Shown in pieces: positions 46,149-64,000 of a stretch of 64,000 nucleotides of DNA. The notes beneath the pieces were generated by a model. That model saw only the letters and a list, made by a program, of their open reading frames with translations. It had not been told where the DNA came from and did not search any database. Position numbers and translations under genes: made by a program. The DNA comes from Actinomycetota bacterium (GTDB lineage: Bacteria > Actinomycetota > Actinomycetes > S36-B12 > UBA5976). The number at the start of each line of letters is the position of its first letter. The stretch's first letter is position 1. The stretch covers positions 36,310 to 100,309 of the forward strand of contig WLPX01000003.1 of assembly GCA_009698575.1 (NCBI GenBank), in the 5' to 3' direction.

Positions 46149-46799
46149 CTATTCAGCCTTACTAATAACTTGGCTAACTACCGCCACCGAGTTTTCGCGA
46201 TGGGCAGCTTGTAGGGCGATTGACTCAGCAACATCCCGGTTACGTAAGGCAACGATCATGTTTCGGTGTTCAGCATTCATGGCCTTTAGATTTGCCGGGG
46301 CTGCGAAGTAGACCCCGCGATAGGCGTCAGTCGCATCCCATTGGTTTCGAATCATGCGCACAAGCCGTGGCATGTTACTCGCCTCAAAAAGTGCAAAGTG
46401 GAACCTGCGATTAGCAGCAGTAACTGCGCTGACGTCACCCGAAGTTGCGGCTGCTTCAACATCGCTCAAAATATCTTCTAGGTACTCAATATCTTCATCG
46501 GTAAGCAACGGAACCCCAACTCGAAGTGCTTCGTCTTCAAGAATTGATCGAATTCGATAAACCTCAACTAAGTCATCAACGCTTAAGTTGGCAACAAAGT
46601 AGCCACGATGCGGGTGATAAATTACCTGGCCTTCGCCTTCTAGTACCTTTAACGCTTCGCGAAGTGGTACTCGACTCACACCAAGGCTGGCAGCTAACGC
46701 ATCTTGCACCACTTGCTGACCTGGTTCAAGCTGACCCGAAGCGATCATGACACGAAGTTCGCGGAGAACTCCTTCTTGCGCGGTAACTGTTTCACTCAT
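46149..46799 (-). CDS. GntR-family regulator, FadR/FCD subfamily
   Basis: 216 aa. Winged HTH (LAASLGVSRVPLREALKVLEGEG) plus a helical FCD-like C-terminus. ATGA overlap with the upstream CoA-transferase. Confidence 0.8.
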   Translation of the reverse strand: MSETVTAQEGVLRELRVMIASGQLEPGQQVVQDALAASLGVSRVPLREALKVLEGEGQVIYHPHRGYFVANLSVDDLVEVYRIRSILEDEALRVGVPLLTDEDIEYLEDILSDVEAAATSGDVSAVTAANRRFHFALFEASNMPRLVRMIRNQWDATDAYRGVYFAAPANLKAMNAEHRNMIVALRNRDVAESIALQAAHRENSVAVVSQVISKAE

Positions 46800-47905
46800 G
46801 CTTCATCCAAACTTGGCGGTGCTACCGCATATCGAACTGGTGTTTTGGAAAAAGTTATTGGGTTTGCAACTTGTTTGCGCGCTTCGCCATCTTGATTCAT
46901 TGTGATGATCGGATTTAATCCAAGTGACTCTGCGAATTTAAACGCATCGTCTAAAGCATTGATTGGACCACATGGCACGCCCACTTCGGACAGGTTATGC
47001 CACCAGTGATCTGCGCCAAATTTGCGGAACTCGGAATTTAGTAAATCATTTAGCGCTACTCGATGTTCGACTCGATCTGGGTTAGTCAAGAATCTCGGAT
47101 CGCTGGCAACATCTGCGATCCCTAATGCGTCACATAGTTTTGCGAACTGTCCATCATTGCCGACTGCAATTACAACTGGTCGATCTGCAGTTTGGTAAAC
47201 CTCGTATGGCGTGATTGACGGATGCGCATTTCCTAAAATTCCTGGAACTACATCACCTGAGACATATGAACTTGCTTGGTTTACCATCGCAGACAGCAGC
47301 GACGAAAGTAAGTTAACTTCGATTTCCTGACCTTCGCCAGATAAGTTTCGATGATTAAGTGCTGCCAAAATTCCGATCGTGGCATGCATTCCAGTGATTA
47401 CATCAACAAGTGCGACGCCAACTTTAGTTGGCTGCCCAGGTCCTGGACCGGTAACACTCATCAAGCCACCCATGGCTTGGACGAGCAAGTCATAGCCAGG
47501 CATTTGTGCACCGGCGCCCGATCCAAAACCGGTAATGGAACAGTAGATAACTTCGGGCTTTAGTTCTTTAACGCTCGCGTAATCCAGACCGAATTTCACG
47601 CTATTGCTCGGTGGAAAATTATGGATGACTATGTCAGCACGTTTAACTAACTCGCGAGCTTCGGCAAGGCCCTCAGCGCTGGTCATATCGATGGCAACTG
47701 AAGTCTTGTTTCGATTTACGGATTCAAAGTAAGTAGCCCGACCAGCAGGATCGTATGGTGGTCCCCAGTGCCGAGTATCGTCGCCAACTTCGGGGCGCTC
47801 AATCTTTATAACCGTCGCGCCCATATCGCCGAGCAACATAGTTGCGTATGGGCCAGCCAAAACGCGTGTGAAATCTGCTACAACTAACCCGTCTAAAGCG
47901 CCCAC
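46796..47905 (-). CDS. Family III (CaiB/BaiF) CoA-transferase
   Basis: 369 aa with the N-terminal signature LDGLVVADFTRVLAGPYATMLLGDMGATVIKIE. Confidence 0.85.
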   Translation of the reverse strand: MGALDGLVVADFTRVLAGPYATMLLGDMGATVIKIERPEVGDDTRHWGPPYDPAGRATYFESVNRNKTSVAIDMTSAEGLAEARELVKRADIVIHNFPPSNSVKFGLDYASVKELKPEVIYCSITGFGSGAGAQMPGYDLLVQAMGGLMSVTGPGPGQPTKVGVALVDVITGMHATIGILAALNHRNLSGEGQEIEVNLLSSLLSAMVNQASSYVSGDVVPGILGNAHPSITPYEVYQTADRPVVIAVGNDGQFAKLCDALGIADVASDPRFLTNPDRVEHRVALNDLLNSEFRKFGADHWWHNLSEVGVPCGPINALDDAFKFAESLGLNPIITMNQDGEARKQVANPITFSKTPVRYAVAPPSLDEA

Positions 47906-47956
47906 ATACTGATTGTATCCAATCTCAAGGATTGAAATACTTCAGGAATAGTTGCC

Positions 47957-48742
47957 TTAAATGTCCTTTAACTCAACGATTCTGCCACGCTCGCCAGGCT
48001 GATCCGAGGTTGCTGGTCGGCCTTTAGTTCGCACCGTGATCCGGGTGCGATCCCCACGAAACAGGTCATGTGAGTACTCGATTTTGCGACCTTGGGTATC
48101 CATTGTGGTTCGGGTCACGGATAGTAAAGGAGATCCCAACGGGACTTCCAAGATTCGCGCTTCATCAGTTGTGGCATTTATTAAGTCAATTTGTTCAACA
48201 GCTTCATCAGGAACTGTTTCATAGTGTTTACCAAGTAATTCATAAATTGAATCACCTAGTGGCCTTTCTAATAGGCCCGGAAACATGTCCGCTGGAAATC
48301 TCGCGTGTTCTAGTGAAATTGGAATGCTATCTGCCAAACGAATTCGCACTACATCAAAAATATGTTCGCCCTCAGAAAGTCCCAAAGCCATTTGAGTCTT
48401 TAGATCCGCCGGCATAACCGAGGCGCTGATTAATTTCGTTCCTGCCGTAAAGCCTTGTCCCCGAAGTAATGATGGGACACCGACAATTTGCGATAAGTCT
48501 CGATCAAGTTTTTCGGAAGCAACAAATGTGCCACCGCCCCTACCTGGCAACCTTCGAACAATGCCTGTTTCTTCTAATGCAGAAAGTGCTAGTCGCAACG
48601 TGGATCGACTAACTTGATATTCAGCTGCGAGTTCGCGTTCAGCAATTAGTTTTTGACCTGGGCGAAGTTGACCAGTTGAAATCTGTCCCAAAATACGTTG
48701 GCGCACATCTTCGGCAGTGCGACCCAAATCGTTTTCGTTCAC
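47957..48742 (-). CDS. GntR-family regulator, HutC subfamily (UTRA effector domain)
   Basis: 261 aa. HTH region ERELAAEYQVSRSTLRLALSALEETG followed by a UTRA-like beta-rich C-terminal domain. GTG start. Confidence 0.8.
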   Translation of the reverse strand: MNENDLGRTAEDVRQRILGQISTGQLRPGQKLIAERELAAEYQVSRSTLRLALSALEETGIVRRLPGRGGGTFVASEKLDRDLSQIVGVPSLLRGQGFTAGTKLISASVMPADLKTQMALGLSEGEHIFDVVRIRLADSIPISLEHARFPADMFPGLLERPLGDSIYELLGKHYETVPDEAVEQIDLINATTDEARILEVPLGSPLLSVTRTTMDTQGRKIEYSHDLFRGDRTRITVRTKGRPATSDQPGERGRIVELKDI

Positions 48743-48766
48743 AGGACAACAGTAACTGCGTACTTG

Positions 48767-49549
48767 CTACATTGCTTCAAGCGCTGCAAGTGATTCGGGC
48801 AAAATTTGGCCGCCATCGATAACCAGAGCCTGCCCAGTTACATACGCCGCTTCTTTTGTTGCGAAAAAGAGTGCTGCGTTACCGATGTCATCAACTTCAC
48901 CAAGTCGACCTTGCGGAACTGATGCTTCCATTGCTTTTCGATACTCGGGACCCATGTCGGCTAAACCTTCAGTTGCAATGTTTCCTGGCAATACTGCGTT
49001 GACTGTTATCCCCTTCGGCGCGAGTTCAATCGCAGCGGTACGCATGAATCCAAGTTGCGCTGCTTTACTGGCTCCGTAATGTGACCAGCCTGGGAAGCCA
49101 GTAACTGGACCAGTGATTGATGACGTTAAAACGATTCGTCCGTGACCTGACTTTTCTAAAGCAGGCAAACAAGCCTGTACCGAAAGCATGGTGCCTTTTA
49201 CATTTGTGCCAAAGACTAAGTCCATATCAGCCTCTGACATCGTTGCCAATTTTGAATCTGGGAAAATTCCGGCATTAGCGCAAAGCACGTCAATGCCACC
49301 ATTGCGCTCGATGGCAGTTGCTGCAACGCGATCGCAATCTGCTTTACTGCTGACCTCGGCGATTAAGTAGGTAACAGTTCCGCCACCTAATCCAGTTAGT
49401 TCTGCGCAGGCAGACTTTGCACTCGCTTCATCACGGCCTGTTATTAGGACATTCGCTCCAGCTTTAGCAAAAACCCTGGCTATGCCTTTACCAATACCTT
49501 TAGTACCGCCAGTTACAACGACTGAGTATCCGGCTACTGATGTGAACAT
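48767..49549 (-). CDS. Short-chain dehydrogenase/reductase (candidate amino-alcohol dehydrogenase / aminoacetone reductase)
   Basis: [12 protein letters not shown] cofactor motif and catalytic YGASKAA. ATG at 49549, preceded by GGGAG, is preferred over the TTG at 49561 that begins the longest ORF. Confidence 0.85.
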
Positions 49550-49596
49550 TTGCACTCCCAATTTAGGTTTTTCAAGTTACGGAAAAGTATCTCTAA

Positions 49597-50586
49597 TTAT
49601 GCGAACTTAGACAGGTAGTTTTCGGCTAATTCACAACTTACTTTGGTGAAATTTGCGCCCATTTCTTTACCAGTGTCGGTATCTTGATGCGACCCAACCC
49701 AGGCAACCAGCAAGAGTCGGCGAAACAGTATGAAAGTTGGAAGTTCGACTTCCTCTTCTTTGCTGAGTGGAGAAACACTTCGGTAGCCATCTACCCATGA
49801 CGCAGTCATCTCGGGAACTAGTGGATGGTCTTCAATAAAGGAAACAGACGACCCAAGGTCGTACATAAACCAGCTAAGTCCGCAGTCATCAAAGTCAATT
49901 ACTGTTACGTCACTGCCTGCAACCAATAAATTAGCTAGCCGCATGTCTGCATGTACCAACCCAAATCGATCTTCACTTTTGCCGTAACGTTCCAGTCGCG
50001 ATTTGAGTGTGTCAGAAAGTCTGCCAAGGATTTCAAGTTCAGTTGGCCCCATAGCAAGTCCATCGCGCCAAGATCCCCAGTGACCATTTGGACCAAGCGC
50101 AGTTTCGTAGTCCCAAGTGAATCTAGAGAAGTTACTTGGACGGCTCCATTGCTTTGATTGATCATGCAGACGTGCAGTTATTGCGCCCAAAGTTTTGAAA
50201 TCATCAACCATGCGCTCTTCGGTAGGTTCAACACCCGGCATAAATTCAAACATCACCGCATGACGTTCTTCACCAGTTGAATCTTTCGCGAGAATGATTT
50301 GCTCACCTGAACCAGCAGGCAAAATTGCTGGGGTTCGAACCAATTGAATTTCGCGCAATGACTGCACCCAGTCAAGCTCACTTTGAATAGCTTGTTTCGA
50401 ATGGTAAAACGGTCGGTGGATTCGCAGAATCGTATCTAGACCAGTGGTGCTATCAGTGACCTTGAAGGTTGCATTCTCCGACAGGTTTAGTAGCGAAATC
50501 TTGGAATCCGCAGGATAGCCAAACTTCGCTACCGCATCTACGGCAAACTCTTGCAACTTTGTAGGTTCGTTCGAATACCCACTCAT
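49597..50586 (-). CDS. APH/choline-kinase-fold kinase (candidate amino-alcohol kinase)
   Basis: 329 aa. Brenner motif HADMRLANLLV and metal-binding IDFDD. Confidence 0.85.
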   Translation of the reverse strand: MSGYSNEPTKLQEFAVDAVAKFGYPADSKISLLNLSENATFKVTDSTTGLDTILRIHRPFYHSKQAIQSELDWVQSLREIQLVRTPAILPAGSGEQIILAKDSTGEERHAVMFEFMPGVEPTEERMVDDFKTLGAITARLHDQSKQWSRPSNFSRFTWDYETALGPNGHWGSWRDGLAMGPTELEILGRLSDTLKSRLERYGKSEDRFGLVHADMRLANLLVAGSDVTVIDFDDCGLSWFMYDLGSSVSFIEDHPLVPEMTASWVDGYRSVSPLSKEEEVELPTFILFRRLLLVAWVGSHQDTDTGKEMGANFTKVSCELAENYLSKFA

Positions 50587-50660
50587 TTAACTCTCCTACC
50601 AACACCTTTATTTTGGCTCACTTGCCAATTGGTTTTGTCACTTTTGGGGAAGAAAAATGT

Positions 50661-51317
50661 TTAACCTTGATCGCGTCCAACAACTGATTCGAGAGCTTTG
50701 GTAATTGCATCACGAGCCTTAGTTACACTTTCCGTTGAGCCACTCATGTAAACCCGTCCGGCTGCACCAATCATCTGTACATCAACCAAAGTCACATCTG
50801 GGGCAACTTTTTCGGCTTCATTAGCAGCCACAGTTGCAAACAACGCCGGTGTCATTTCATAAACCAACAGAGATTCACCTGGCATAACCATTGACGCTTG
50901 CCGATTGCGGTTGAGAATAATGGCATGTTGATCCGTGATGTTTTCAATAATGTCGCTGTAAAGAATCCGGGGACGTAATTGGTCAGCTGCTGAAGCGTTT
51001 ATGCCATCAAGGATCGCCTGACCAGCTCGCTTTACCAATTCAATGTCAGAAGCGTGAACTTCTAAAACACCAAACTGACGTTCCACGAACAAAATGCCAG
51101 GTTCAACTTCAGGTACCGACTTCAGCGCCAAGTCAATTACTCGCTCGATCGCAAGCCCGGGTGCTACCTCGATGATCAAAGAGTGCTGACCACCATATGG
51201 AGGGTAACCCCGAGCTCGCGTCGGCGTGCTCATATAAGCAGCAAATTGCTGCTGGAGCTCTTCAACAAGCAAGTAGACGCGTAGTTCGGGCCCTGCTACG
51301 AGCGGGCCCGCACTCAA
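50661..51317 (-). CDS. Tandem BMC-domain shell protein (BMC-T type), paralogue 1
   Basis: 218 aa with two internal BMC-like repeats ([20 protein letters not shown]...[15 protein letters not shown] and [20 protein letters not shown]...[16 protein letters not shown]). TTG start overlapping the BMC-H stop (TTGA). Confidence 0.8.
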
Positions 51318-51598
51318 GCGGACTCGCCTACTTTGAAGTACTTGCTTAGTTCTGCATGTGGACGTGGAATTACGTGCTGTGAAACTAGTTCGCCAACTTG
51401 GTTAACTGCTTCGGCACCTGCGTCAGTTGCAGCCTTAACTGCGCCGACATCACCCACGATGACAACAGTCACAAGACCGTCGCCAACTTCTTCACGCGCA
51501 ACAATAGTTACATTGGCTGCCTTAACCATGGCATCTGCAGCAGCAACTGCTGCAACATATCCCTTAGTCTCGATCAAGCCCAGTGCGTTGCTTGACAT
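51314..51598 (-). CDS. BMC-H hexameric shell protein (Pfam00936-type)
   Basis: 94 aa: [26 protein letters not shown]...[23 protein letters not shown], a canonical PduA/CcmK-like sequence. Strong SD AGGAGA upstream. Confidence 0.93.
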
Positions 51599-51680
51599 AT
51601 CTTTCTCCTATTTGTGATTGCAAACGGTTGTTTGCTTTCGGTTTATTCAGTCTTACTTGCCTGGTTTCCCAGGCGGTGTA

Positions 51681-51950
51681 CTAAGAAGCGCTGTGCTTCC
51701 CAGAACTCTTAGTGTCCTCATCAATCGAACCGATGATGAGAGCATCAATTGGCGGTGTTACGTCTGGGAACCAAGCTGCTGCTACTGAGCCAGTTGAAAC
51801 CAAAACGCTTTCCCCAATTCCGGAACCCAGAACGTCGAAAGCAACCAAGTGTGCGCCACCTTCAACTTCGACTTCGAGAAATGCCCCGTGGGGAATCTCA
51901 GTTAGACGACGGGTCGCCCATACATTGCCGATGACTCGAGCTTTTAACAT
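51681..51950 (-). CDS. BMC-P pentameric vertex protein (EutN/CcmL family)
   Basis: 89 aa: MLKARVIGNVWATRR...LVAFDVLGSGIGESVLVSTGS...IDALIIGSID, the typical EutN/CcmL pattern. Confidence 0.9.
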   Translation of the reverse strand: MLKARVIGNVWATRRLTEIPHGAFLEVEVEGGAHLVAFDVLGSGIGESVLVSTGSVAAAWFPDVTPPIDALIIGSIDEDTKSSGKHSAS

Positions 51951-52438
51951 CAGCGCATCACCGATCCCTTCTGATTATCTTGTTGACTTTCTTTTATGAT
52001 CGTCACACCTAAGTCGCGAGCTTTATCTCGCGCTAGTGATGTGACGACAACTTTGCGACCCACGATCAAAGTTGATCCGGATTCGGCAGCTTTTCTGATT
52101 GTTGACTCGGTAACAGCACCCTTTTCGATTCGGGTAGTCCCGCTATTATCTGCAACGTTAGCTTTCGCTTGGTCAGTTAACTGAAAAACGATTTCACCCT
52201 CGCGCAGCGCGCTCAGAGTTTTTGCATCTGCGGCCAAGTCAAGAATCCGATGCACAAAAGTTTGTACCTGAACGTCACTGGTCAAGGAAACCATTTCAAC
52301 AACTTGTGCTGGTTTTTGAGTAGGTGTCGCGTTGCCAGCTAAAGCTTTTGCAATGTCACTTGCCCCACTGGCGCCACCTAGCGCATCTCGCAGTGCTTCG
52401 CGGACGAGCGCCCGAAGCATTTCGTTATCTGTAGACAT
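51950..52438 (-). CDS. BMC-locus hypothetical protein with N-terminal encapsulation-peptide-like amphipathic helix
   Basis: 162 aa. EMLRALVREALRDAL (52379-52423), then a Gly/Ala/Pro/Gln linker, then a roughly 110-aa domain ending VVVTSLARDKARDLGVTI. Translationally coupled on both sides (TGATG). Confidence 0.6.
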   Translation of the reverse strand: MSTDNEMLRALVREALRDALGGASGASDIAKALAGNATPTQKPAQVVEMVSLTSDVQVQTFVHRILDLAADAKTLSALREGEIVFQLTDQAKANVADNSGTTRIEKGAVTESTIRKAAESGSTLIVGRKVVVTSLARDKARDLGVTIIKESQQDNQKGSVMR

Positions 52439-53037
52439 CAGCGCTCACTCAAAACTCGTTCAGCAACTTCAGCTGCCGCTCGAACATTTGCTTCTTTGCC
52501 AGATAAGTACACCCGACCAGTAGCGCCAATCATCCGGTAGTCAACAACTTTTATGTCAGTTGCCTTTTCCGCTTCATTAGTTGCCAAGATCGCATATGAC
52601 GCCGGTTGAACTTCCAATATGTACAAAGATTCACCCGGCAGAATCATCGAACCGACTTTGTTTCGATTGATAAGGAATGCATGCTGTTGATCCACGGATG
52701 GAACGACTCGGGAAGCCAAGATTTTAGGTTTTGTCGCTTCCGACTCAGATGTTCCAAGAGCTGCTAGTACTGCCTGACCGGCAGCGCGCACTTCTTCGGT
52801 TGGACCATGAATTTCTAGGTATCCGAAGGTTCGCTCTACGAACAAGATTCCAGCCTGAACATTTGCATGTTTTAGGGCAACGTCGGTCAACGCTTCAATG
52901 TCCAGACCAGGTGCAACTTCAATCACCTGGGCAGCCATGTTTGCGCGTGGCAAAGCTCCCTTAACCCATGAGCCCAAATAGCACATAGTTTGAGGTTGCA
53001 TCTGGTCGATATAGATGAACGACCGAAGCTCTGCCAT
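52438..53037 (-). CDS. Tandem BMC-domain shell protein (BMC-T type), paralogue 2
   Basis: 199 aa with two BMC-like repeats (VIEVAPGLDIEALTDVALKH...LEIHGPTEEVRAAG and ILEVQPASYAILATNEAEKA...VYLSGKEANVRAAAE). Collinear with the 218-aa paralogue. Confidence 0.8.
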   Translation of the reverse strand: MAELRSFIYIDQMQPQTMCYLGSWVKGALPRANMAAQVIEVAPGLDIEALTDVALKHANVQAGILFVERTFGYLEIHGPTEEVRAAGQAVLAALGTSESEATKPKILASRVVPSVDQQHAFLINRNKVGSMILPGESLYILEVQPASYAILATNEAEKATDIKVVDYRMIGATGRVYLSGKEANVRAAAEVAERVLSER

Positions 53038-53054
53038 GTATCTCTCTTCTCTAA

Positions 53055-57870: not shown

Positions 57871-57878
57871 CGTACAAA

Positions 57879-57925
57879 CAAATGAAATTGGGCATCAGCA
57901 TTGCTGGTGCCCAATTTCATTTTTA
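57879..57925 (+). terminator. Intrinsic terminator after the permease gene
   Basis: Long inverted repeat AAATGAAATTGGGCATCAGCA / TGCTGGTGCCCAATTTCATTT (one G-U pair) followed by a T-run. Confidence 0.8.
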
Positions 57926-57978
57926 AAGACTTCTTAAACCATAGGGAATTGCTCGACTAAATCGACAAGAATAAGGGC

Positions 57979-59016
57979 ATGACACTAGAGATTTGCAATT
58001 GGGCGCCGGATGAAGATGCTGATCCAGCCACACACACTTTCACATTTGGTGGACGTGAGGGTGTAGTTAGCGTAAAGCCAGGAACCATAATTGATTCTTG
58101 GTCCTTTGACTGCTTTGGTGGCCGGGTTAAATCTGCCAGTGACATGTCAACACAAGTTTGTGACCCTAGGTTTCTAAATCCGCAAACCGGACCGTTCTAT
58201 GTCGAAGGTGCCGAGCCAGGTGACACCTTGGCGGTTCACTTCATTTCTATTGAACCCCGTGAGGCTTGGGGCGTTAGTACGACTGTGCCATTCTTTGGCG
58301 CGCTTACTTCAACGCCGACAACTGCAACTTTGCAACCCGCACTTTTAGAACGAACTTGGATTTATGAATTGGACTTAACTGAGCGCTTAGTTAGATACGC
58401 AGCAGCTGACACTAAGTTCACAGCCGCACTGCCATTAGATCCGATGCACGGCACCGTCGGAGTCGCGCCCGCACTTGGCGAAGTTCGCTCATCTTTAACT
58501 CCAGGTGACTGGGGCGGAAATATGGATACTCCTGAAATGCGCGCTGGCGTTACTTGTTATCTAGGCGTAAATGTTGAAGGTGCATTGTTTTCATTTGGCG
58601 ATGGACATGCGCGCCAAGGTGAAGGTGAAACTTGTGGTGTCGCCGTTGAGACTGCCATGGATACCGTACTGATAATCGATTTGATCAAGGGAACTCCAAC
58701 GCCTTGGCCGCGTATTGAATCCGACGATTACATAATCACCACTGGCTCAACCAAGCCACTGGAAGATGCATTCCGAATCGCACATTCCCAGATGGTTCAT
58801 TGGGTTAGCGAACTAACCGGCCAATCAACTTTGGATAGTTATCAGTTCGTTTCGCAAACCGCTTTGACTCCAGTGGCAAATGTGGTTGATACCAACTACA
58901 CGATGGTTGCTAAAGTCGCCAAGGAATACTTAGGTAGTGTGAACGTAATGCAAGGAATGCATCACAAAATGCGAGCCAAAGCAGCGCAGTGGCAAACGTA
59001 TAAGAAAGGCAACTAA
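57979..59016 (+). CDS. Acetamidase/formamidase-family amidohydrolase
   Basis: 345 aa. FmdA/AmdA-like features: NPQTGPFYVEGAEPGDTLAVH and GNMDTPEM...GDGHARQGEGE. Confidence 0.75.
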   Translation: MTLEICNWAPDEDADPATHTFTFGGREGVVSVKPGTIIDSWSFDCFGGRVKSASDMSTQVCDPRFLNPQTGPFYVEGAEPGDTLAVHFISIEPREAWGVSTTVPFFGALTSTPTTATLQPALLERTWIYELDLTERLVRYAAADTKFTAALPLDPMHGTVGVAPALGEVRSSLTPGDWGGNMDTPEMRAGVTCYLGVNVEGALFSFGDGHARQGEGETCGVAVETAMDTVLIIDLIKGTPTPWPRIESDDYIITTGSTKPLEDAFRIAHSQMVHWVSELTGQSTLDSYQFVSQTALTPVANVVDTNYTMVAKVAKEYLGSVNVMQGMHHKMRAKAAQWQTYKKGN

Positions 59017-59450
59017 TGCCAAGGGTAGAACGCATGGAAATTGATTTAGCGCTCGCAATTGAAATGACCAATGCTGCTAAAGCTAAAGCAATTGAAATTA
59101 ATGCCCCCATGTCAATTGCCGTGCTTGACGCAGGTGCAAATCTGCTTAGCTTTCAGCGCATGGATGGCGCCGAACTTGCGGGGCCTAATTTGGCAGTTGA
59201 TAAGGCTTACACGTCAGTAACAAATCGAATTGAGACTGGCGACTTGCGAGCGCGAGTTGCACCTGATGGTGACCTGCCAGGCATGAACGCAAACGGTAAC
59301 GGTCGTTACATCGCATTCGCTGGCGGTATTCCGTGTTGGGATGGCGATCGCGTAATTGGAGCCATCGGAGTAAGTGGTGGCTCATGGGATGAAGATCAAA
59401 TATGTGCCCAGGCTGGAATTGAAGTATTTAAGCGAGCATGCCAGGCATGA
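59016..59450 (+). CDS. GlcG/DUF336 (PduO C-terminal-domain-like, putative haem-binding) protein
   Basis: 144 aa: ISIAVLDAGANLLSFQRMDGA...DKAYTS...GAIGVSGGSWDEDQ. TAATG junction with the amidase gene. Confidence 0.8.
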   Translation: MPRVERMEIDLALAIEMTNAAKAKAIEINAPMSIAVLDAGANLLSFQRMDGAELAGPNLAVDKAYTSVTNRIETGDLRARVAPDGDLPGMNANGNGRYIAFAGGIPCWDGDRVIGAIGVSGGSWDEDQICAQAGIEVFKRACQA

Positions 59451-61687
59451 TTCCAAACGAGCCAATTGGCCGCTTTCGTTTTATGAACGAGCAGCGCGTC
59501 AATCTCGACGGTTTTGCAACTCCCGAACCTGAGTTAGGACTAGTTGCATTCAATGGCATAAACGATCCAGCTCCTTCATTGATAATCAATGCCGGACGCA
59601 TTGTGGAAATGGATGGTCGGGGCGAATCAGATTTTGATTCAATCGATGAGTTCATCGCCCGGCACGGAATTGACTTAAGTGTTGCCCAAGAAGCTATGGC
59701 AATCGACAGCACGGAGTTTGCTCGCAGACTCGTTGATCCCAATCATTCTCGAAAAAGCATTGTGCAACTTGCCTCTGGGATGACACCTGCAAAGTTAGCC
59801 GAGATACTTTCCCTACTTACTGCCGCAGAATTAGTTATCGCAATGACAAAAATGCGAGCAAGGCGTACGCCGAGTAATCAGGCGCATGTAACTAACAGGT
59901 CGGATGATCCGCTATTGCTTGCCGCTGATGCCGCAACTGCCGCCGCATTTGGATTTAGAGAACTTGAAACCACAGTTCCAGTTGCAGCCGATGCGCCATC
60001 TAATGCAGTTGCAGTATCAATCGGAGCGGCTGTTGGCTCGCCTGGCGTGCTAGTGCAGTGTTCGGTTGAAGAAGCCGCAGAGTTAGCCCTTGGCATGCGT
60101 GGATTAGTTTCGTACGCAGAAACGGTTTCGCTTTATGGAACTGAACAAATTTTTATCGATGGTGACGACACTCCGTGGTCTAAAGCATTTCTAACTAGCG
60201 CCTACGCCAGTCGTGGCATCAAAATGCGAGTTACTTCTGGTGGTGGTTCCGAAGCCCTGATGGGCGGTGCTGAAAAATGCAGCATGTTTTATCTTGAGGC
60301 GCGCTGCGTTGCGCTAGCTCGAGCAATCGGCGCACAAGGTGTGCAAAACGGTGGAATCGATTCAGCTTCAGTTGCTGGTGCCGTACCAGGTGGTGTTCGT
60401 TCCTTAATGGCAGAAAACGTAATGGTGATGTTGCGAAATCTCGAAGCTTGCACAGGTAACGACGCGCTAATGAGTGAATCTGACGTTCGGAGAACTTCGA
60501 GAACTCATCCAATTTTTATTGGCGGCTCCGACTTTATTAATAGTGGGTTTGGTTCAATCCAGCGCTACGACAATATGTTTGGGCCAAGTCAGTGGAATTC
60601 TGAAGACATCGATGATTTCTTGGCTATGCAACGCGACTGGGGTGTCGATGGTGGTCTTCGCACCGCAAATGAAGTCGAAGTTGCCAGATTACGGCGGCGC
60701 GCAACGGAAGCAGTAAGTGCGGTTTATTCCTGGTTGGGACTAGGCGATTTTTCCCAAGAGTGGGCCGAGCAGGCCATTGATGCGGCTGGCTCTAAAGATA
60801 TTTCTTCGGGCGACTTGATGCTTCCACTAACTGCAGCTCGCACAATTATGGAAACCAATGTAACCATGCTTGACGTCATCGCAGCCCTTGCCGAAAATGG
60901 TTTCGATCTAGAGGCGCAACGTTGCTTGGACATGCTTAAGGCTCGAGTTGCAGGTGACTACTTACAAACTTCAGCAATTTTCGACGAAGAAATGAATGTG
61001 CTTTCGCTAGTTACAGATCCAAATGAATACTCCGGTCCTGGAACGGGATATCAACCGACGCCTGCTCGACAGGCACAGATCGACACCATTAGACAGCAAC
61101 GTTCAGTTGCTGACTTACTTGTGGAACAAAAAAGTTTTGGAAACAAGAATATTTTTGCAACTGGATCTGCTGAAGTTAGTTACGACCCGCGTGATGTTGT
61201 TATCGGTGTCTCACCTGCCACTGGTAAAGACATTTGGGTCACACTCTCTGGTCTAAGTGTTGCCGATGCGATAACTGAAATCCTGGCTGGTCTCGAAGAA
61301 GAGGGTTGCGTTGGACGCATAGTTCGCATCAATGACTCACTTGATTTGGGCATGATCGGGTTAACTGCTGCCCGACTTTCCGGATCTGGTGTCAGCGTTG
61401 GATTGCAAGCAAAGGGAACTGCATTAATTCATCGCAGAGATTTAGCTCCACTGGCAAACCTCGAGTTGTATTCAGTTGCTCCGACAATTACGCGCGAGCT
61501 TTATCGCATGATGGGAATCAACGCTGGTCGCCATGCAAAGGGAGCTACGCCCGAACCAGTCCGCAATCCATATTCGGATGAAGCAATTGAAGCGCGCTAC
61601 CACACCAAAGTTGTTTCATTAGTTGCGATTGAACGTAATTGCGTAACTAAAGAAGTCCCAGAAGTTATGGAGCTGAGGAAGTCATGA
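59438..61687 (+). CDS. pduCD: Coenzyme-B12-dependent diol/glycerol dehydratase, fused large (alpha) + medium (beta) subunit
   Basis: 749 aa. Residues 1 to about 550 are collinear with PduC (MTPAKL, MRARRTPSNQAHVTN, DGDDTPWSKAFL, YLEARC, DNMF, GDYLQTSA). Residues from about 586 to the end are collinear with the PduD core (VVIGVSPATG...LSGSGVSVGLQAKGT...NLELYS). An alternative start at ATG 59447 gives an ATGA overlap with the DUF336 gene. Confidence 0.9.
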   Translation: MPGMIPNEPIGRFRFMNEQRVNLDGFATPEPELGLVAFNGINDPAPSLIINAGRIVEMDGRGESDFDSIDEFIARHGIDLSVAQEAMAIDSTEFARRLVDPNHSRKSIVQLASGMTPAKLAEILSLLTAAELVIAMTKMRARRTPSNQAHVTNRSDDPLLLAADAATAAAFGFRELETTVPVAADAPSNAVAVSIGAAVGSPGVLVQCSVEEAAELALGMRGLVSYAETVSLYGTEQIFIDGDDTPWSKAFLTSAYASRGIKMRVTSGGGSEALMGGAEKCSMFYLEARCVALARAIGAQGVQNGGIDSASVAGAVPGGVRSLMAENVMVMLRNLEACTGNDALMSESDVRRTSRTHPIFIGGSDFINSGFGSIQRYDNMFGPSQWNSEDIDDFLAMQRDWGVDGGLRTANEVEVARLRRRATEAVSAVYSWLGLGDFSQEWAEQAIDAAGSKDISSGDLMLPLTAARTIMETNVTMLDVIAALAENGFDLEAQRCLDMLKARVAGDYLQTSAIFDEEMNVLSLVTDPNEYSGPGTGYQPTPARQAQIDTIRQQRSVADLLVEQKSFGNKNIFATGSAEVSYDPRDVVIGVSPATGKDIWVTLSGLSVADAITEILAGLEEEGCVGRIVRINDSLDLGMIGLTAARLSGSGVSVGLQAKGTALIHRRDLAPLANLELYSVAPTITRELYRMMGINAGRHAKGATPEPVRNPYSDEAIEARYHTKVVSLVAIERNCVTKEVPEVMELRKS

Positions 61688-62049
61688 ATTTACAAATTGG
61701 TTTTTCCGGAAAGAATGTCTCTGAAGTTACGGTTGAATCAATTCGTCGCGGAGACATAACTCTCGATGACGTACGAATTCATCCGAGTACTTTGTCGCAT
61801 CAAGCTGACGTTGCCCGCGAAAATGGCAATCCTCAACTCGCGGAGAATTTTCTGCGGGCCGCAGAATTGACTGGGCTGCCAGATGAAACGGTTTTGCGAT
61901 ACTACGACGCACTCCGTCCCGGCCGATCGACTGCACAAGATTTACTTCAAATTGCTGATGATTTGGCAGCCATTGGCGCAGTCAAAAACTCCGAATTGTT
62001 TCGCCAGGCTGCAGATGTCTATGCTCGCCGCGGGCTTACCGCAAAATAG
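61684..62049 (+). CDS. pduE: Diol/glycerol dehydratase small (gamma) subunit, short form
   Basis: 121 aa: DDVRIHPSTL..QADVARE...NFLRAAELTGLPDE..L.YYDALRPGRST, collinear with the PduE core. ATGA overlap with the fused alpha-beta gene. Confidence 0.88.
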   Translation: MNLQIGFSGKNVSEVTVESIRRGDITLDDVRIHPSTLSHQADVARENGNPQLAENFLRAAELTGLPDETVLRYYDALRPGRSTAQDLLQIADDLAAIGAVKNSELFRQAADVYARRGLTAK

Positions 62050-62054
62050 TCCTT

Positions 62055-63698
62055 ATGAAACTTGTCGCTGGGATAGATATCGGAAACTCAACGACAGAAA
62101 TCGTAATCTCAAATGGCGCTGAGCCAATTGCCTGGGATCGCAGGCCAACTCGAGGCATCAAGGGATCTGAAGCATCGGTAAAAGCGGCGCTATCACTCTT
62201 ACAAAACATCGAACGGGAACACAACCTAATCGCTACACAAGTTTCCGTCGCGCCATGGAATCCAGTGGAAACATTAACTTCCACAATTCATGAGCCACTA
62301 CCAAACACCGGAAAGTTGCAAATAATTAAAACTGCCCACCAAAGTGTTGTTGGCGATGGTTGGGTTGTGGGTAATCCGTGGCTGATTACCGAAGCAGTTA
62401 AGTCCAACGAATCAGCAATTGCTATCGTGCCATCAGGTACTGGATATGACATTGCTGCCAACATAATCAATCAAGCAATCGCGCAAGGTGCTCAAATCAC
62501 AGGTGTTGTAGTTGCAGATGACGAAGCAGTGCTAATTGCTAAGCGCGTTACAAAAAACTTGCCCGTAGTTGATGGGGCTGATACTGCCACCGCGCTGAGA
62601 GCTCGAAAGTTGTTTTTGGAAGTTAGGCCGCAAAGCACCACGGTGCAGGCTGCGACTGACATTTGGGCGCTGCGGGCGGCACTAGAACTAACTGAAGATG
62701 AAGCAACACCGCTATCTGAAATAGTTCGTTGGGTTAGAAATGATCGCACGGTTTTGATCGGTCTGTTTGCAGATACCAAGAGCTCGATTGAAATTCAAAA
62801 TGGTTTTGTTACTTGGCGCGATTACACGAAATTGGATCTATTCGATGCAGTCTCACAAATGTCGAATTCCCAAATTGGCGACATCACACAGCTAAATATT
62901 CCTGATGCAGTTTTAACATCCGATGTTTGGGCCTTTGACATCACTAAGGTTTTGGCAGAACGTGGGCTACGCCAAGTTGGGCACACTCGAGACTTGGCAA
63001 TAGCTCAACTTGCAGCATCCAGCATTGAAACTCCAAATGACTTATCAGAAATATTTGGAGTGCCAGTAGTTGTGGCACAATCCGAAGCCCAAGCTGCCAA
63101 GTTAGGCGCGCACAGTACGCCAGGTCTGGCATTAGACGCGGCAGTTTTAGACATCGGTGGCGGCACCATTGATTTGATCAGCACAGTTGAGTTATCAGCT
63201 GCCGGCGCTGGTGAATTGCTAACAGCAGCAGTTGCCTTTGCTTTAGATACTTCGCGTGGTGCGGCAGATTGGATTAAGCGTGGTCCAGCCCAGCGGTTAG
63301 AGTCGCCGCATCTATTGCTTGCTGAAGATGGAAGTAAAGCCTTCACTGAAGAATCTAAGCCTTATCCAGCATCTGCAATGGGTTCGTTAATCGCCCCTGG
63401 GCCCGCTGGTTATCTGACGTTTGGGCAAAATCTGCAACCAGCTGAATGGCGCATCATGCGTCAAGCGTTAAAGCAAGCAGCTATCGGGGCAAATGTGGCG
63501 CGACTAATTAGAAGTATCGCCGGCAATGGAAATGCTGGTCCAAGTTTGAACCTAGTAGTAGTCGGTGGGCCAGCAGCAGACGATGAACTCATCCCGATTT
63601 TGAGTCAAGTTATGGGAATCACTGCAATTGGCAGAGGAAATGTTGCCGGAAAACTCGGTCATAGGTACGCCGTTGCCTATGGCTTATCTCAACTTTAA
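62055..63698 (+). CDS. pduG: Diol dehydratase reactivase large subunit (PduG/DdrA-like)
   Basis: 547 aa. N-terminus MKLVAGIDIGNSTTEIV and a second phosphate motif LDIGGGTIDL (ASKHA fold). Confidence 0.85.
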   Translation: MKLVAGIDIGNSTTEIVISNGAEPIAWDRRPTRGIKGSEASVKAALSLLQNIEREHNLIATQVSVAPWNPVETLTSTIHEPLPNTGKLQIIKTAHQSVVGDGWVVGNPWLITEAVKSNESAIAIVPSGTGYDIAANIINQAIAQGAQITGVVVADDEAVLIAKRVTKNLPVVDGADTATALRARKLFLEVRPQSTTVQAATDIWALRAALELTEDEATPLSEIVRWVRNDRTVLIGLFADTKSSIEIQNGFVTWRDYTKLDLFDAVSQMSNSQIGDITQLNIPDAVLTSDVWAFDITKVLAERGLRQVGHTRDLAIAQLAASSIETPNDLSEIFGVPVVVAQSEAQAAKLGAHSTPGLALDAAVLDIGGGTIDLISTVELSAAGAGELLTAAVAFALDTSRGAADWIKRGPAQRLESPHLLLAEDGSKAFTEESKPYPASAMGSLIAPGPAGYLTFGQNLQPAEWRIMRQALKQAAIGANVARLIRSIAGNGNAGPSLNLVVVGGPAADDELIPILSQVMGITAIGRGNVAGKLGHRYAVAYGLSQL

Positions 63699-63797
63699 TT
63701 CAAAATTTTCACACCAGAATTTGAAAAATCTGCAAAAGTATTTATAGCAAGTTTGGTATTCAGGTTTGAACCTAAATATAAATAAAGGGAGCGCGTA

Positions 63798-64000
63798 ATG
63801 GCTACTACCGTTTGGCATAACGGCAAAGTGTGGATTAATGAAAATGAATCATCAGATGCGATTGCAGCATCTGATGGTGTAATCGTTGCTCACGGTGCAG
63901 ATGCGCTTGCCTTGCAGGCCGATGAAAAAATTGACCTTAACGGCGCCACTTTGTTGCCAGGTTTTGGTGATGGTCATGCGCATCCAGTTTTTGGTGGTAC
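63798..64000 (+). CDS. Amidohydrolase-family (YtcJ-like metal hydrolase) protein, N-terminal fragment running off the window
   Basis: Not in the ORF track. ATG 63798, preceded by AAAGGGAG, translates to MATTVWHNGKVWINENESSDAIAASDGVIVAHG...IDLNGATLLPGFGDGHAHPVFGG (HxH metal motif). Confidence 0.65.
   Translation, partial: MATTVWHNGKVWINENESSDAIAASDGVIVAHGADALALQADEKIDLNGATLLPGFGDGHAHPVFGG

Follow-up and report, generated by a model that had tools for sequence, protein, structure and literature searches.

A fused B12-dependent dehydratase operon beside an RMM/AAUM-type microcompartment locus of a freshwater Nanopelagicales actinobacterium

Gene content of the locus

The window, the whole stretch of 64,000 nucleotides that was analysed, contains two gene blocks at positions 47957-63698. 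The minus strand encodes a complete microcompartment core of the RMM/AAUM type, and a divergent operon on the plus strand encodes a permease, an amidase, a DUF336 protein, a fused alpha-beta B12 dehydratase, its small subunit, and a reactivase alpha subunit (Table 1). By homology and synteny, the locus is assigned to an already known organelle type, the RMM/AAUM of amino-alcohol breakdown. Every gene named in the original prediction was found where it had been placed, and the two chemistries (kinase/lyase and B12 dehydratase) had been identified correctly. The suggestion of a high-GC Mycobacterium or Rhodococcus as host does not hold; with a GC content of ~48% in the window and Nanopelagicales MAGs as nearest relatives (91-96% identity), the host is a freshwater Nanopelagicales actinobacterium. 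No mention of Nanopelagicales together with microcompartments was found in the literature searched.

Table 1. Features of the locus and its flank, with positions in the window
Feature	Position	Strand	Basis
GntR-FCD regulator	46149-46799	-	Pfam
CoA-transferase III	46796-47905	-	Pfam
GntR/UTRA (HutC-type) regulator	47957-48742	-	Pfam GntR+UTRA
SDR	48767-49561	-	Pfam adh_short
APH-family kinase	49597-50586	-	Pfam APH
Tandem-domain BMC-T, CsoS1D-like	50661-51317	-	43% identity to the other BMC-T of the window
BMC-H hexamer shell protein	51314-51598	-	Pfam BMC, E=8.8e-28
BMC-P pentamer vertex protein	51681-51950	-	Pfam EutN_CcmL, E=1.3e-17
RMM-specific 162-aa protein	51950-52438	-	homologues only
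Second tandem-domain BMC-T	52438-53037	-	Pfam BMC
CoA-acylating AldDH	53055-54626	-	Pfam Aldedh
AldDH C-terminal encapsulation peptide (residues ~500-523)	53058-53129	-	
Class-III aminotransferase-fold PLP enzyme (AT3)	54623-55933	-	Pfam Aminotran_3
Divergent promoter region	55934-56289	.	repeats and palindrome
APC-family amino-acid / ethanolamine-type permease	56290-57870	+	Pfam AA_permease
Acetamidase/formamidase-family amidase	57979-59016	+	Pfam FmdA_AmdA
HbpS-like/DUF336 protein	59016-59450	+	Pfam HbpS-like
Fused Dehydratase_LU+MU, 749 aa	59438-61687	+	Pfam LU+MU
Dehydratase_SU small subunit, 121 aa	61684-62049	+	Pfam Dehydratase_SU
Reactivase alpha-like ATPase, 547 aa	62055-63698	+	Pfam DDR + DDR_swiveling

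The last gene of the core block encodes the GntR/UTRA regulator, and its synteny is kept in relatives. The GntR-FCD and CoA-transferase III genes adjoin the housekeeping gene argS and do not follow the GntR-UTRA gene in inspectable relatives; as neighbours of the system, they are candidate members at most. Residues 17-327 of the kinase match PDB 6EF6 (E=2.5e-89), which we take to be the aminopropanol kinase of M. smegmatis, and the protein appears to be a homologue of (S)-1-amino-2-propanol kinase. The SDR gene stays beside the kinase gene in all architectures; by analogy with the cited M. smegmatis/Rhodococcus literature, its product is predicted to be an aminoacetone / 1-amino-2-propanol dehydrogenase. 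The open reading frame of AT3 extends to 55978, but its true start is probably the ATG at 55933, because orthologues comprise 432-436 aa. AT3 is predicted, by analogy with the literature, to be an amino-alcohol O-phosphate phospho-lyase, and its sequence identity amounts to 77-98% across Actinomycetota and to 69% with the gammaproteobacterial copy.

Among the shell proteins, the second BMC-T shares 70% identity with a BMC protein of R. jostii RHA1 (pRHL2), and orthologues of the CsoS1D-like BMC-T carry PF27545 (CsoS1D_N). The 162-aa protein has no match in Pfam, NCBIfam, or PDB, and its AF2 model (pLDDT 64) yielded no fold match; its 43 homologues share an N-terminal amphipathic helix, which resembles an encapsulation peptide, followed by a variable Pro/Ala linker and two conserved modules. 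The best NCBIfam matches of the AldDH are acetylating acetaldehyde dehydrogenases. Its C-terminus consists of a Pro-rich linker and an amphipathic helix (DVAELRDEIRKLIVEELHALIKN), and homologues retain the motif ELR[DE]EIR[RK]LI[VI][ED]EL behind a variable linker, which supports the predicted encapsulation peptide. That the AldDH is the only one was borne out for the window, where a tblastn search with it yielded no paralogue at E<=1e-3.

The divergent promoter region contains repeated half-sites of the GACCAAA/TACCAAA type (56001-56052 and 56123-56132) and, at 56221-56236, the CRP-like palindrome TGTGACTGAGGTCACC, a candidate site; only one other site in the 64-kb window comes as close to TGTGA-N6-TCACA (at most one mismatch), and the palindrome is found again upstream of the permease in distant relatives. 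The permease, which weakly matches the ethanolamine permease of NCBIfam, is encoded by the first gene of the plus-strand block; in relatives without the amidase, it lies directly upstream of the dehydratase. The amidase matches PDB 5UBU (E=1.6e-57) and is an accessory gene of the block; it occurs together with DUF336 in 43 of the 64 loci with at least 2.5 kb of upstream sequence and is lacking in the co-directional loci and in the versions of Gammaproteobacteria and Rhizobiaceae described below. The HbpS-like/DUF336 protein is an ordinary companion of B12 dehydratases; the K. oxytoca dehydratase is likewise flanked by a 142-aa gene annotated as a heme-binding protein.

The fused dehydratase conserves all catalytic and Ca2+-binding residues, and its large-subunit part exceeds the NCBIfam cut-off for the "propanediol/glycerol family". 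Residue 308, at the position of Ser301, is Asp, and residue 343, at that of Gln336, is Ala. Both substitutions recur in all 80 related loci (the best 80 tblastn matches); dehydratases of Rhizobiaceae have Asp/Thr at positions 301/336. According to PMC7674605, Ser301 touches the C3-OH of glycerol. Further changes shared by these enzymes lie beside Asp335, including His to Glu at position 341 of glycerol dehydratase. In a rough NJ tree, the Asp-type dehydratases group as a single clade. They share the alpha-beta fusion, a short gamma subunit, and Asp at position 301 of the pocket, and they lack a reactivase beta subunit; by these sequence traits, the enzyme is a member of a distinct, specialised Asp301 clade.

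The small subunit has no N-terminal extension and aligns to positions 58-168 of a 174-residue long-form model; DhaB3 of K. oxytoca, with 142 aa, is longer. Reactivase alpha scores below the NCBIfam cut-off for PduG and evolves fast, with 33-40% identity between actinobacterial clades. It is followed by an AT-rich spacer of ~100 nt and an Amidohydro_3 gene starting at 63798. No medium-subunit-like or DdrB-like ORF was detected in the window or within 10 kb on either side in the 80 related loci (phmmer, E<=10), in agreement with the original observation that the reactivase beta subunit is missing.

Relation to known systems

The locus closely resembles RMM1/AAUM1 of M. smegmatis MC2 155 and R. 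jostii RHA1, which have the same GntR regulator, SDR, aminopropanol-kinase homologue, class-III PLP enzyme, AldDH, and permease and the same shell set (one BMC-H, one BMC-P, and two BMC-T). PTAC and alcohol dehydrogenase are lacking in the present locus as in RMM1/AAUM1, and in R. jostii RHA1 the position of the 162-aa protein gene between BMC-P and BMC-T is likewise occupied. By contrast, the divergent operon of amidase, DUF336, B12 dehydratase, and reactivase is present here but not in RMM1, the alpha/beta-hydrolase genes of RMM1 are absent, and the host is a low-GC freshwater lineage.

The statement in the original prediction that a dehydratase-containing RMM subtype had been catalogued was correct. 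Axen 2014 described RMM2 from four genomes, stating both an "unused" and a "bifunctional" reading and favouring that "the dehydratase is not used". Its combination of RMM genes with diol dehydratase homologues encoded on the other strand, the lack of hydrolases, and the synteny from permease to regulator all match the present locus. Sutter 2021 redefined RMM2 as mainly proteobacterial, with another gene order and without the dehydratase; the gene order here differs from that and is RMM1-like.

With the PDU metabolosome (PduCDE and PduGH of Salmonella/Citrobacter), the locus shares an AdoCbl diol-dehydratase family enzyme with reactivase alpha and the proximity of the dehydratase to BMC shell genes and an acylating AldDH. 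It differs in the alpha-beta fusion, the lack of targeting extensions and of PduH, and a pocket with Asp301/Ala336 instead of Ser/Gln; PduL, PduQ, PduS, and PduO were not apparent among the genes predicted between 46 and 64 kb. Glycerol/diol dehydratases in which alpha and beta are naturally fused and the small subunit is separate are documented for Mesorhizobium loti and M. smegmatis (Liu 2010, cited in PMC7674605). They are presented only as variants with a fusion and as candidates for engineering, and the text consulted mentions neither pocket substitutions nor a link to amino-alcohol kinase/lyase genes.

Linkage of the dehydratase across relatives

Co-occurrence was counted on the 80 best tblastn matches, which are not an unbiased census, and linkage on the 31 loci in which the dehydratase has 9 kb or more of sequence on each side. 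Kinase and/or lyase are present in all 31 of these relatives and a full shell plus AldDH in 28, which decisively contradicts the possibility, considered in the original prediction, that the two blocks are never co-conserved. No dehydratase of the Asp301 clade without a kinase/lyase module was found among the loci examined. RMM or kinase/lyase modules without the dehydratase occur in R. jostii, A. fabrum C58, and one Nanopelagicales relative, whose AldDH is 90% identical.

The link between dehydratase and kinase/lyase extends over Actinomycetota, Gammaproteobacteria, and Rhizobiaceae, regardless of whether shell or AldDH is present, and is kept in four architectures. Besides the divergent arrangement (44 loci), there is a co-directional one (7 loci), in which the stop codon of the GntR gene lies ~0-90 nt before the start of the dehydratase, and a gammaproteobacterial version with a PotD-like ABC transporter and no shell. 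In Rhizobiaceae, a cluster on one strand comprises, in this order, ABC transporter, dehydratase, small subunit, UgpC, SDR, phosphotransferase, aminotransferase-family protein, and GntR; no AldDH or reactivase gene is annotated in the 22-26 kb inspected. A decayed locus of Acidothermaceae, like the gammaproteobacterial and Rhizobiaceae versions, keeps the link to SDR, kinase, and lyase without shell and AldDH, suggesting that the dehydratase is coupled to the amino-alcohol enzymes and not to the shell or AldDH.

This pattern bears on the reading preferred by Axen and shared by Sutter 2021, in which the dehydratase operon is a mere neighbour of the BMC locus and has no part in its function. The opposite strands of the two blocks in the window, the presence of PDU enzymes near only 4 of 32 RMM2 loci (Sutter 2021), and the existence of dehydratase-less RMM loci, one of them in a close Nanopelagicales relative, are in line with it. 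However, the kinase and/or lyase link in 31 of 31 loci from one phylum and two proteobacterial classes and in four gene orders, the short distance between dehydratase and the GntR gene of the RMM operon in co-directional loci, and the RMM permease at the head of the dehydratase operon already render this reading disfavoured and, in our judgement, highly improbable. Because the clade always occurs beside kinase/lyase genes, the two blocks look like one pathway and not like chance neighbours, and seem to form one functional unit, whose tie is to the kinase/lyase module and not to the shell.

Pathways compatible with the locus

The role of the dehydratase in such a unit may be conceived in several ways. 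It could be an ordinary 1,2-propanediol (or ethanediol/glycerol) dehydratase operating in parallel with the kinase/lyase route, with the aldehydes of both meeting at the encapsulated AldDH. This is the reading of the original prediction and also the "bifunctional BMC" of Axen. It requires only canonical chemistry, for which every catalytic and Ca2+-binding residue is conserved and the large-subunit score is sufficient; both routes lead to a C2/C3 aldehyde, the window encodes one AldDH, the two blocks are strongly co-located, and the RMM2-bearing Paracoccus yeei has been reported to grow on 1,2-propanediol (PMC8156839). We nevertheless consider it rather unlikely, since it accounts for the link to AldDH but not for that to SDR, kinase, and lyase, which Rhizobiaceae, Gammaproteobacteria, and Acidothermaceae keep despite the loss of AldDH and shell, and offers no reason for the invariant substitutions Ser301Asp and Gln336Ala in the C3 pocket. 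With the pocket remodelled in this way, 1,2-propanediol cannot be assumed as the substrate.

The location of the enzyme is a further consideration. Encapsulation-peptide extensions like those that target PduD/PduE were not found on the beta part or the gamma subunit, suggesting that the dehydratase is cytosolic; this is weak evidence, because AT3, kinase, and SDR also lack recognisable encapsulation peptides. If the dehydratase formed an aldehyde, it would be released free in the cytosol, which argues against parallel routes. One shell serving two feeder pathways is favoured by the strong co-location of the blocks but not by the missing PduD/PduE-type extensions or by a link that outlasts the shell; the alternative of a cytosolic dehydratase, also raised in the original prediction, fits better but is awkward with a free aldehyde as product.

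A linear route from aminopropanol, which extends scenario 2 of Ravcheev and Thiele, would employ AT3 as a transaminase yielding lactaldehyde, the SDR to form 1,2-propanediol, and the dehydratase to supply the AldDH with propionaldehyde. It would retain the normal regiochemistry of the dehydratase, explain why SDR, aminotransferase-fold enzyme, and dehydratase travel together, and agree with the fact that the solved structures nearest to AT3 are true aminotransferases. We regard it as highly improbable, because it has no role for the ever-present kinase, conflicts with the kinase/phospho-lyase route reportedly proposed from the biochemistry of M. smegmatis, does not account for the pocket changes, and would render dehydratase-less RMM loci incomplete.

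Our tentative preference, with a likelihood somewhat short of even, is a single catabolic unit consisting of the RMM core and a cytosolic dehydratase that broadens its intake. In this unit, the SDR would interconvert aminoacetone and 1-amino-2-propanol, the kinase would form the amino-alcohol O-phosphate, and the class-III-fold PLP enzyme would remove phosphate and ammonia to yield propionaldehyde, which the peptide-targeted AldDH would trap as acyl-CoA within a shell of one BMC-H, one BMC-P, and two BMC-T. The substrate of the dehydratase would more probably be a diol with a cationic (amino) substituent at C3, such as 3-amino-1,2-propanediol, than plain 1,2-propanediol. By family names, the adjacent transporters (APC permease, PotD-like ABC, and CUT1-type ABC) would be suited to a small polar amine as cargo. 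Also in line with a distinct role of the clade, a canonical Pdu system expressed in E. coli did not consume 3-amino-1,2-propanediol (bioRxiv 10.64898/2026.06.05.730297).

Several points argue against the amino-diol. The large-subunit part still scores above the "propanediol/glycerol family" cut-off of NCBI, and the usual regiochemistry would yield 3-aminopropanal, which SDR, kinase, and lyase enzymes are, to our knowledge, not known to process. To form aminoacetone, the enzyme would have to abstract at the secondary carbon, which in the dehydratase family is known only for 2,3-butanediol (PMC7674605; bioRxiv 10.64898/2026.06.05.730297). Neither a natural source nor a known pathway for 3-amino-1,2-propanediol was found in the literature searched.

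The Asp301 clade, its constant linkage to kinase/lyase genes, the one-way dependence of the dehydratase on that module, and the absence of an encapsulation peptide from the dehydratase go beyond the literature searched. In the single unit preferred here, the dehydratase may act on a vicinal diol brought in from outside, and the resulting carbonyl compound would join the same route. This would widen the diet of the module, and toxic aldehyde would arise only inside the shell.

Layout and host of the composite locus

The gene list of the original prediction is borne out by an ORF map and Pfam scans, which place a minus-strand block of shell, kinase and aldehyde dehydrogenase (AldDH) genes divergently to a plus-strand operon encoding a fused B12 dehydratase. 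The gene between AldDH and the divergent intergenic region encodes AT3, a class-III aminotransferase-fold PLP enzyme and predicted amino-alcohol O-phosphate phospho-lyase; it probably starts at ATG 55933 (MTQEQVAAPEF...), which yields a product of 436 aa, and its orthologues comprise 432-436 aa. The genes from amidase to reactivase overlap or are only 5 nt apart. They are followed by an AT-rich spacer of ~100 nt and an Amidohydro_3 gene (63798-64000, plus strand; ~460-490 aa) that runs off the window; the same gene directly follows the reactivase alpha gene in the related loci L003-L017 and is kept at this position only in the Nanopelagicales-like clade.

Features of the composite locus (window positions)
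Feature	Position	Strand	Remarks
Family-III CoA-transferase and GntR/FCD regulator	46149-47905	minus	abut argS
GntR/UTRA regulator	47957-48742	minus	
SDR	48767-49561	minus	
APH-family kinase	49597-50586	minus	
Second tandem BMC-T (outward order)	50661-51317	minus	
BMC-H	51314-51598	minus	
BMC-P	51681-51950	minus	
162-aa protein	51950-52438	minus	no family match
Tandem BMC-T	52438-53037	minus	
AldDH	53055-54626	minus	
AT3	54623-55978	minus	longest ORF, GTG 55978; class-III aminotransferase fold
Divergent intergenic region			311-356 nt, between AT3 and permease
Amino-acid permease	56290-57870	plus	
FmdA/AmdA amidase	57979-59016	plus	
HbpS-like/DUF336 protein	59016-59450	plus	
Fused dehydratase, large and medium subunits	59438-61687	plus	749 aa
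Dehydratase small subunit	61684-62049	plus	121 aa
Reactivase alpha-like protein	62055-63698	plus	547 aa

The remainder of the scanned window consists of housekeeping genes (argS and hom-thrC-thrB-rho-prfA, Pfam-checked), including an ORF at 43067-44407 that is probably lysA. The CoA-transferase and the GntR/FCD regulator are listed as mere neighbors because they do not occur beside the RMM block in the inspectable relatives. A 580-aa protein (34187-35929, minus strand) shows a weak, below-cut-off match to a B12-binding domain in its C-terminal residues 463-543, which may make it another cobalamin-related protein of this neighborhood.

The best relatives of the fused dehydratase (91-96% identity) stem from lake MAGs labelled Candidatus Nanopelagicales or Actinomycetota, which identifies the host as a low-GC freshwater actinobacterium and not as a Mycobacterium or Rhodococcus. 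The GC content of the window is flat (~48%); horizontal acquisition of the island was rejected as far as base composition is concerned, because both GC and skew are flat across its boundary. No joint mention of microcompartments and Nanopelagicales was found in the literature searched, and propanediol, ethanolamine, and shell proteins go unmentioned in a 2025 study on cultivated Nanopelagicales.

Shell, cargo, and regulation of the RMM block

Judged by its gene content, the minus-strand block is the core of an amino-alcohol microcompartment (RMM/AAUM). Its shell set comprises one BMC-H, one BMC-P, and two tandem BMC-T of the dp type (Pfam BMC, EutN_CcmL), the same as that of RMM1/AAUM1 in the supplement of Sutter 2021. 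The two BMC-T paralogs are 43-45% identical to each other, and their orthologs carry CsoS1D_N and BMC domains. On plasmid pRHL2 of Rhodococcus jostii RHA1, the annotated order (AldDH, BMC, hypothetical, EutN, BMC, BMC) is that of the window, and one BMC protein shares 70% identity with the BMC-T at 52438-53037. The SDR, the GntR regulator, and the amino-acid permease are also present in RMM synteny. The pRHL2 locus (L089, 12001-17490) contains the sequence BMC-T, hypothetical, EutN, BMC-H twice, with identical protein accessions, and this four-gene repeat arose by recent duplication inside the RMM locus.

The kinase matches PDB 6EF6, which we take to be the aminopropanol kinase of M. smegmatis, over nearly its full length (E=2.5e-89), and is a predicted APH-family (S)-1-amino-2-propanol kinase homolog. 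AT3 combines the class-III aminotransferase fold with RMM synteny, and its closest solved structures are true aminotransferases; its assignment as a putative phospho-lyase draws on secondary citations. Mallette and Kimber are said to have described in 2018, and secondary citations to repeat, a route from aminoacetone via aminopropanol, its O-phosphate, and propionaldehyde to propionyl-CoA. A linear line in which a transaminase would lead through lactaldehyde to propanediol is very improbable.

AldDH falls closest to the NCBIfam type of acetylating acetaldehyde dehydrogenases and carries at its C terminus a Pro-rich linker and then DVAELRDEIRKLIVEELHALIKN. This C-terminal helix motif is kept in the homologs behind a linker of variable sequence, which is the classic signature of a predicted encapsulation peptide. 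The 162-aa protein has an N-terminal amphipathic helix, EMLRALVREALRDAL, which is as well conserved as the helix of AldDH and is followed by a length-variable Pro/Ala linker and a pair of small conserved modules; no other protein of the region has a terminal element resembling an encapsulation peptide. It has no sequence match in Pfam, NCBIfam, or PDB, and an AF2 model from a 43-sequence alignment (pLDDT 64, pTM 0.28) retrieved nothing from PDB below E=0.1 with Foldseek. The protein could be a second cargo with an encapsulation peptide or an adaptor for enzymes that lack one.

The locus proteins scanned with Pfam include no member of a PTAC or alcohol dehydrogenase family, an absence that is a known peculiarity of RMM loci (Axen 2014). 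In one clade of JGI metagenome contigs (L085-L087, 16641-19721), genes with Complex1_51K/NADH_4Fe-4S, Fer4_15, Ferric_reduct, and ApbE domains come after the RMM locus; they are of interest because the recycling of NAD+ in RMM compartments is unexplained.

The divergent intergenic region contains a CRP/GlxR-like palindrome, TGTGACTGAGGTCACC (56221-56236), which precedes the permease start by ~55-70 nt. Within the 64 kb of the window, only one other site has no more than one mismatch to the CRP consensus TGTGA-N6-TCACA, and a comparable palindrome occupies the same relative position 5' of the permease in distant actinobacterial relatives. On the AT3 side, four half-sites of the GACCAAA/TACCAAA type, TTAGACCAAAAG, CTTTTGGTTGAA, TTTTGGTTTAA, and TTATACCAAA (56001-56052 and 56123-56132), are candidate GntR/UTRA operators; similar ACCAAA repeats are found at the same relative positions in relatives from distant clades. 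Scans of the stretch from 46 to 64 kb for consensus promoters and terminators gave fewer matches than shuffled sequence.

A dehydratase clade with a remodelled pocket and its gene context

Through its active-site region, the window dehydratase aligns without gaps to the glycerol dehydratase of K. pneumoniae (PDB 9vi2/1iwp). In the numbering of the K. oxytoca diol dehydratase, mapped via the alignment to glycerol dehydratase, the Ca2+ ligands and catalytic residues Gln141, His143, Glu170, Glu221, Gln296, Asp335, and Ser362 are kept not only in the window protein but in all 80 relatives; Phe374 is also kept in the window protein. The C3 pocket, which is Ser/Gln at positions 301 and 336 of the canonical enzymes, has changed from Ser301 to Asp308 and from Gln336 to Ala343 (window numbering), and this replacement is invariant in all 80 loci (the best 80 of 298). 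Both residues were reportedly mutated by Yamanishi in 2012 to alter chain-length tolerance and inactivation by glycerol. Glycerol bound in the pro-S mode directs its C3-OH towards Ser301 (PMC7674605).

Among 1.84 billion cluster representatives, the pocket types are Ser/Gln (canonical), Ser/Ala, Asp/Ala, Asp/Thr, Asp/Ser, and Asp/Asn, with Asp/Thr in the dehydratases of Rhizobiaceae. The latter share with the window clade the replacements I304A, T338L/K, F339M/T, and H341E (glycerol-dehydratase numbering), next to Asp335. In a rough, midpoint-rooted NJ tree, the Asp-type sequences form one clade (hereafter the Asp301 clade) and the Ser-type sequences the other.

NCBI cut-offs are reached by neither the beta part nor the small subunit, and the reactivase alpha-like protein lies far below its PduG cut-off. 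As part of the fusion, the beta part lacks a free N-terminus; the small subunit falls short of even the non-encapsulated DhaB3 (142 aa) in length and aligns to residues 58-168 of the 174-residue PduE-type long form, i.e., only to the C-terminal core. In place of an alpha2-beta2 reactivase (DdrAB/PduGH/GdrAB), there is only the alpha-like protein: 81 regions (80 loci and the window) contain no ORF resembling DdrB/PduH or a medium subunit, and neither an ORF running off the window end nor a hidden small ORF in the relatives qualified as a reactivase beta gene. In the Rhizobiaceae members, no reactivase gene is annotated nearby. The PDU metabolosome has PduD/PduE N-terminal targeting extensions, PduL, PduQ, and PduGH, and the locus differs from it on these points; no PduL or PduQ family match was obtained among the locus proteins scanned with Pfam.

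A scan of a genome collection with the fused dehydratase yielded 298 relatives, of which the best 80 loci were kept and searched for all window proteins. Cultured carriers include Kineosporia sp. R_H_3 (L056), Microbispora siamensis NBRC 104113 (L068), and Acidothermaceae bacterium B102 (L072). The co-conservation of the two blocks that the original prediction had called for is evident: all 31 loci flanked on each side by at least 9 kb carry kinase and/or lyase (AT3), and 28 of them at least three shell genes plus AldDH. With at least 9 kb upstream, kinase and/or lyase are present in 43 of 45 loci; the remaining two lie on gammaproteobacterial contigs too short to reach the site at which these genes are found in their relatives.

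The gene order varies among the relatives. A divergent, window-like order (a) is found in 44 loci, where amidase and DUF336 may be missing (of the 64 loci with enough upstream sequence, 43 have both); in L081-L084, which lack them, the permease lies directly 5' of the dehydratase. A gene of DUF336 size, annotated as heme-binding protein, likewise adjoins the K. oxytoca dehydratase. In seven loci, plus L093-L096, the order (b) is co-directional (AT3, AldDH, shell, kinase, SDR, GntR, dehydratase), with a gap of only ~0-90 nt between the GntR stop and the dehydratase. This removes the opposite-strand argument of Axen, and undercuts the explanation that the operon merely lies beside an unrelated BMC locus, which we regard as barely credible.

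Other lineages retain the association in the absence of an organelle. Two gammaproteobacterial MAGs (L018, L029) show an order (c) of HTH-cupin regulator, enolase-superfamily (MR_MLE) gene, dehydratase, small subunit, and reactivase alpha, continuing with AraC, a PotD-like ABC transporter, SDR, kinase, and AT3; shell genes are absent, and the MR_MLE gene takes the place of the amidase 5' of the dehydratase. Their dehydratases share 82-85% identity with the window protein and are nested in the actinobacterial clade of the rough NJ tree, suggesting an acquisition by horizontal transfer between phyla. On plasmids of Rhizobiaceae (Shinella zoogloeoides, Agrobacterium cucumeris), order (d) is a single same-strand run of sugar-type ABC components, fused dehydratase, small subunit, UgpC, SDR, phosphotransferase, aminotransferase-family protein, and GntR, with no annotated AldDH, shell, or reactivase gene in the stretches inspected. 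Acidothermaceae bacterium B102 (L072, AP028633.1) has kept SDR, kinase, AT3, permease, amidase, DUF336, and dehydratase; the shell genes between kinase and AT3 are missing and AldDH is reduced to a fragment (32% identical, 4063-4770, tblastn), so that the locus looks decayed; SDR, kinase, and lyase are intact, as is the operon of the dehydratase. In L046, the kinase adjoins the dehydratase and there is no shell.

Loci picked from the RMM side, irrespective of the presence of a dehydratase, give a complementary picture. A dehydratase is adjacent in two loci selected by their AldDH homologs (P0224 and P0258, 67-69% identity) and in two selected by homologs of the 162-aa protein (P0389 and P0369, 38-39% identity). 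The locus with an AldDH 90% identical to that of the window (P0153, in three related assemblies) has an RMM block with neither permease nor dehydratase within 10 kb. In two of these assemblies (L099, GCA_038908875.1; L100, GCA_038908755.1), the block occupies another genomic site, with a second APH-family kinase and an acyl-CoA dehydrogenase directly upstream, which indicates that organelle block and dehydratase operon are separable within one order; the third (L101, GCA_038909025.1) has the same downstream flank, and its contig ends before the upstream genes. A dehydratase is also missing from the RMM locus on R. jostii pRHL2 and from plasmid pAt of A. fabrum C58, where the genes for kinase, AT3, and SDR accompany a PotD/PotF transporter. 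Dependence thus runs in one direction only: the module (SDR, kinase, and AT3) and the organelle occur in the absence of the dehydratase, and the Asp301 clade was not seen in the absence of the module.

Proposed cooperation of dehydratase and module

Much of the composite has precedents. RMM2 was defined by RMM1 genes with diol dehydratase homologs on the opposite strand and without the RMM1 hydrolases (Axen 2014), and the window locus is of this catalogued type. It is not RMM2 in the sense of Sutter 2021, who described that type as proteobacterial (mainly Proteobacteria and Marinimicrobia) with a gene order unlike RMM1; the window has an actinobacterial host and the actinobacterial RMM1-type order. 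For Mesorhizobium loti and M. smegmatis, PMC7674605 mentions naturally fused alpha and beta subunits with reference to Liu 2010. Together with the DUF336-size neighbor in K. oxytoca, these precedents mean that the central idea of the original prediction and most of the oddities it listed were already known. Three points are new: evidence for a genuine association, specific for one separate clade of dehydratases that is marked by its altered pocket and a reactivase consisting of alpha only; the coupling of the dehydratase to the kinase/lyase module and not to the organelle; and the occurrence of the composite in Nanopelagicales.

The two blocks very likely form one functional unit; the mode of their cooperation we infer. 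The original prediction had one shell and a single AldDH serving both feeder pathways, or a cytosolic dehydratase delivering aldehyde to an organelle. Its observation stands, as does the reality of the association, and its interpretation is supported in part; the convergence of parallel routes from 1,2-propanediol and aminopropanol on one encapsulated AldDH is rather unlikely. Three observations speak against such a convergence. The conserved partners of the dehydratase are SDR, kinase, and lyase and not AldDH or the shell; the dehydratase has no targeting extensions, so that free aldehyde would be released in the cytosol; and a carboxylate has been added to the C3 pocket, with transporters of the amine/polar-solute type encoded alongside.

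We tentatively favor, at somewhat less than an even chance, a reading that fits these observations, namely a single unit in which a cytosolic dehydratase would act upstream of the module and convert an imported, more probably cationic, diol to a carbonyl compound that enters the module route. A candidate reaction would be the conversion of 3-amino-1,2-propanediol to aminoacetone via abstraction of a hydrogen at the secondary carbinol carbon. We know of no natural source of 3-amino-1,2-propanediol. In the dehydratase family, secondary-carbon abstraction is known only for 2,3-butanediol (PMC7674605; bioRxiv 10.64898/2026.06.05.730297). The canonical Pdu system in E. coli does not consume 3-amino-1,2-propanediol (bioRxiv 10.64898/2026.06.05.730297), which agrees with a difference in specificity but would be explained equally well by a lack of uptake.

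It is distinctly unlikely, at the present state of evidence, that the fused B12 dehydratases of the Asp301 clade are dehydratases of amino-diols (e.g., 3-amino-1,2-propanediol) rather than of propanediol, and the first enzyme of an extended AAUM; our literature search found no report of an amino-diol B12 dehydratase. If they were, the new carboxylate (Asp301) would bind the ammonium group of the substrate, and the aminoacetone formed would be the entry substrate of the route via SDR, kinase, phospho-lyase, and AldDH. For its maintenance, the dehydratase would depend on an alpha-only reactivase or do without any.

The role of the RMM-adjacent diol dehydratase has been open since 2014, and the 2021 catalog treated the enzyme as incidental. 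For a large actinobacterial group, the gene context reverses this view: no member of the clade was found to lack the module, including those that have lost the organelle. This raises the enzymological question of which substrate the Asp301/Ala336 pocket accepts, and a natural fused alpha-beta B12 dehydratase with a beta-less reactivase or none is relevant to the engineering of inactivation-resistant glycerol dehydratases. The locus also places a metabolosome and a B12-dependent enzyme in the Nanopelagicales, which are among the most abundant freshwater bacteria.
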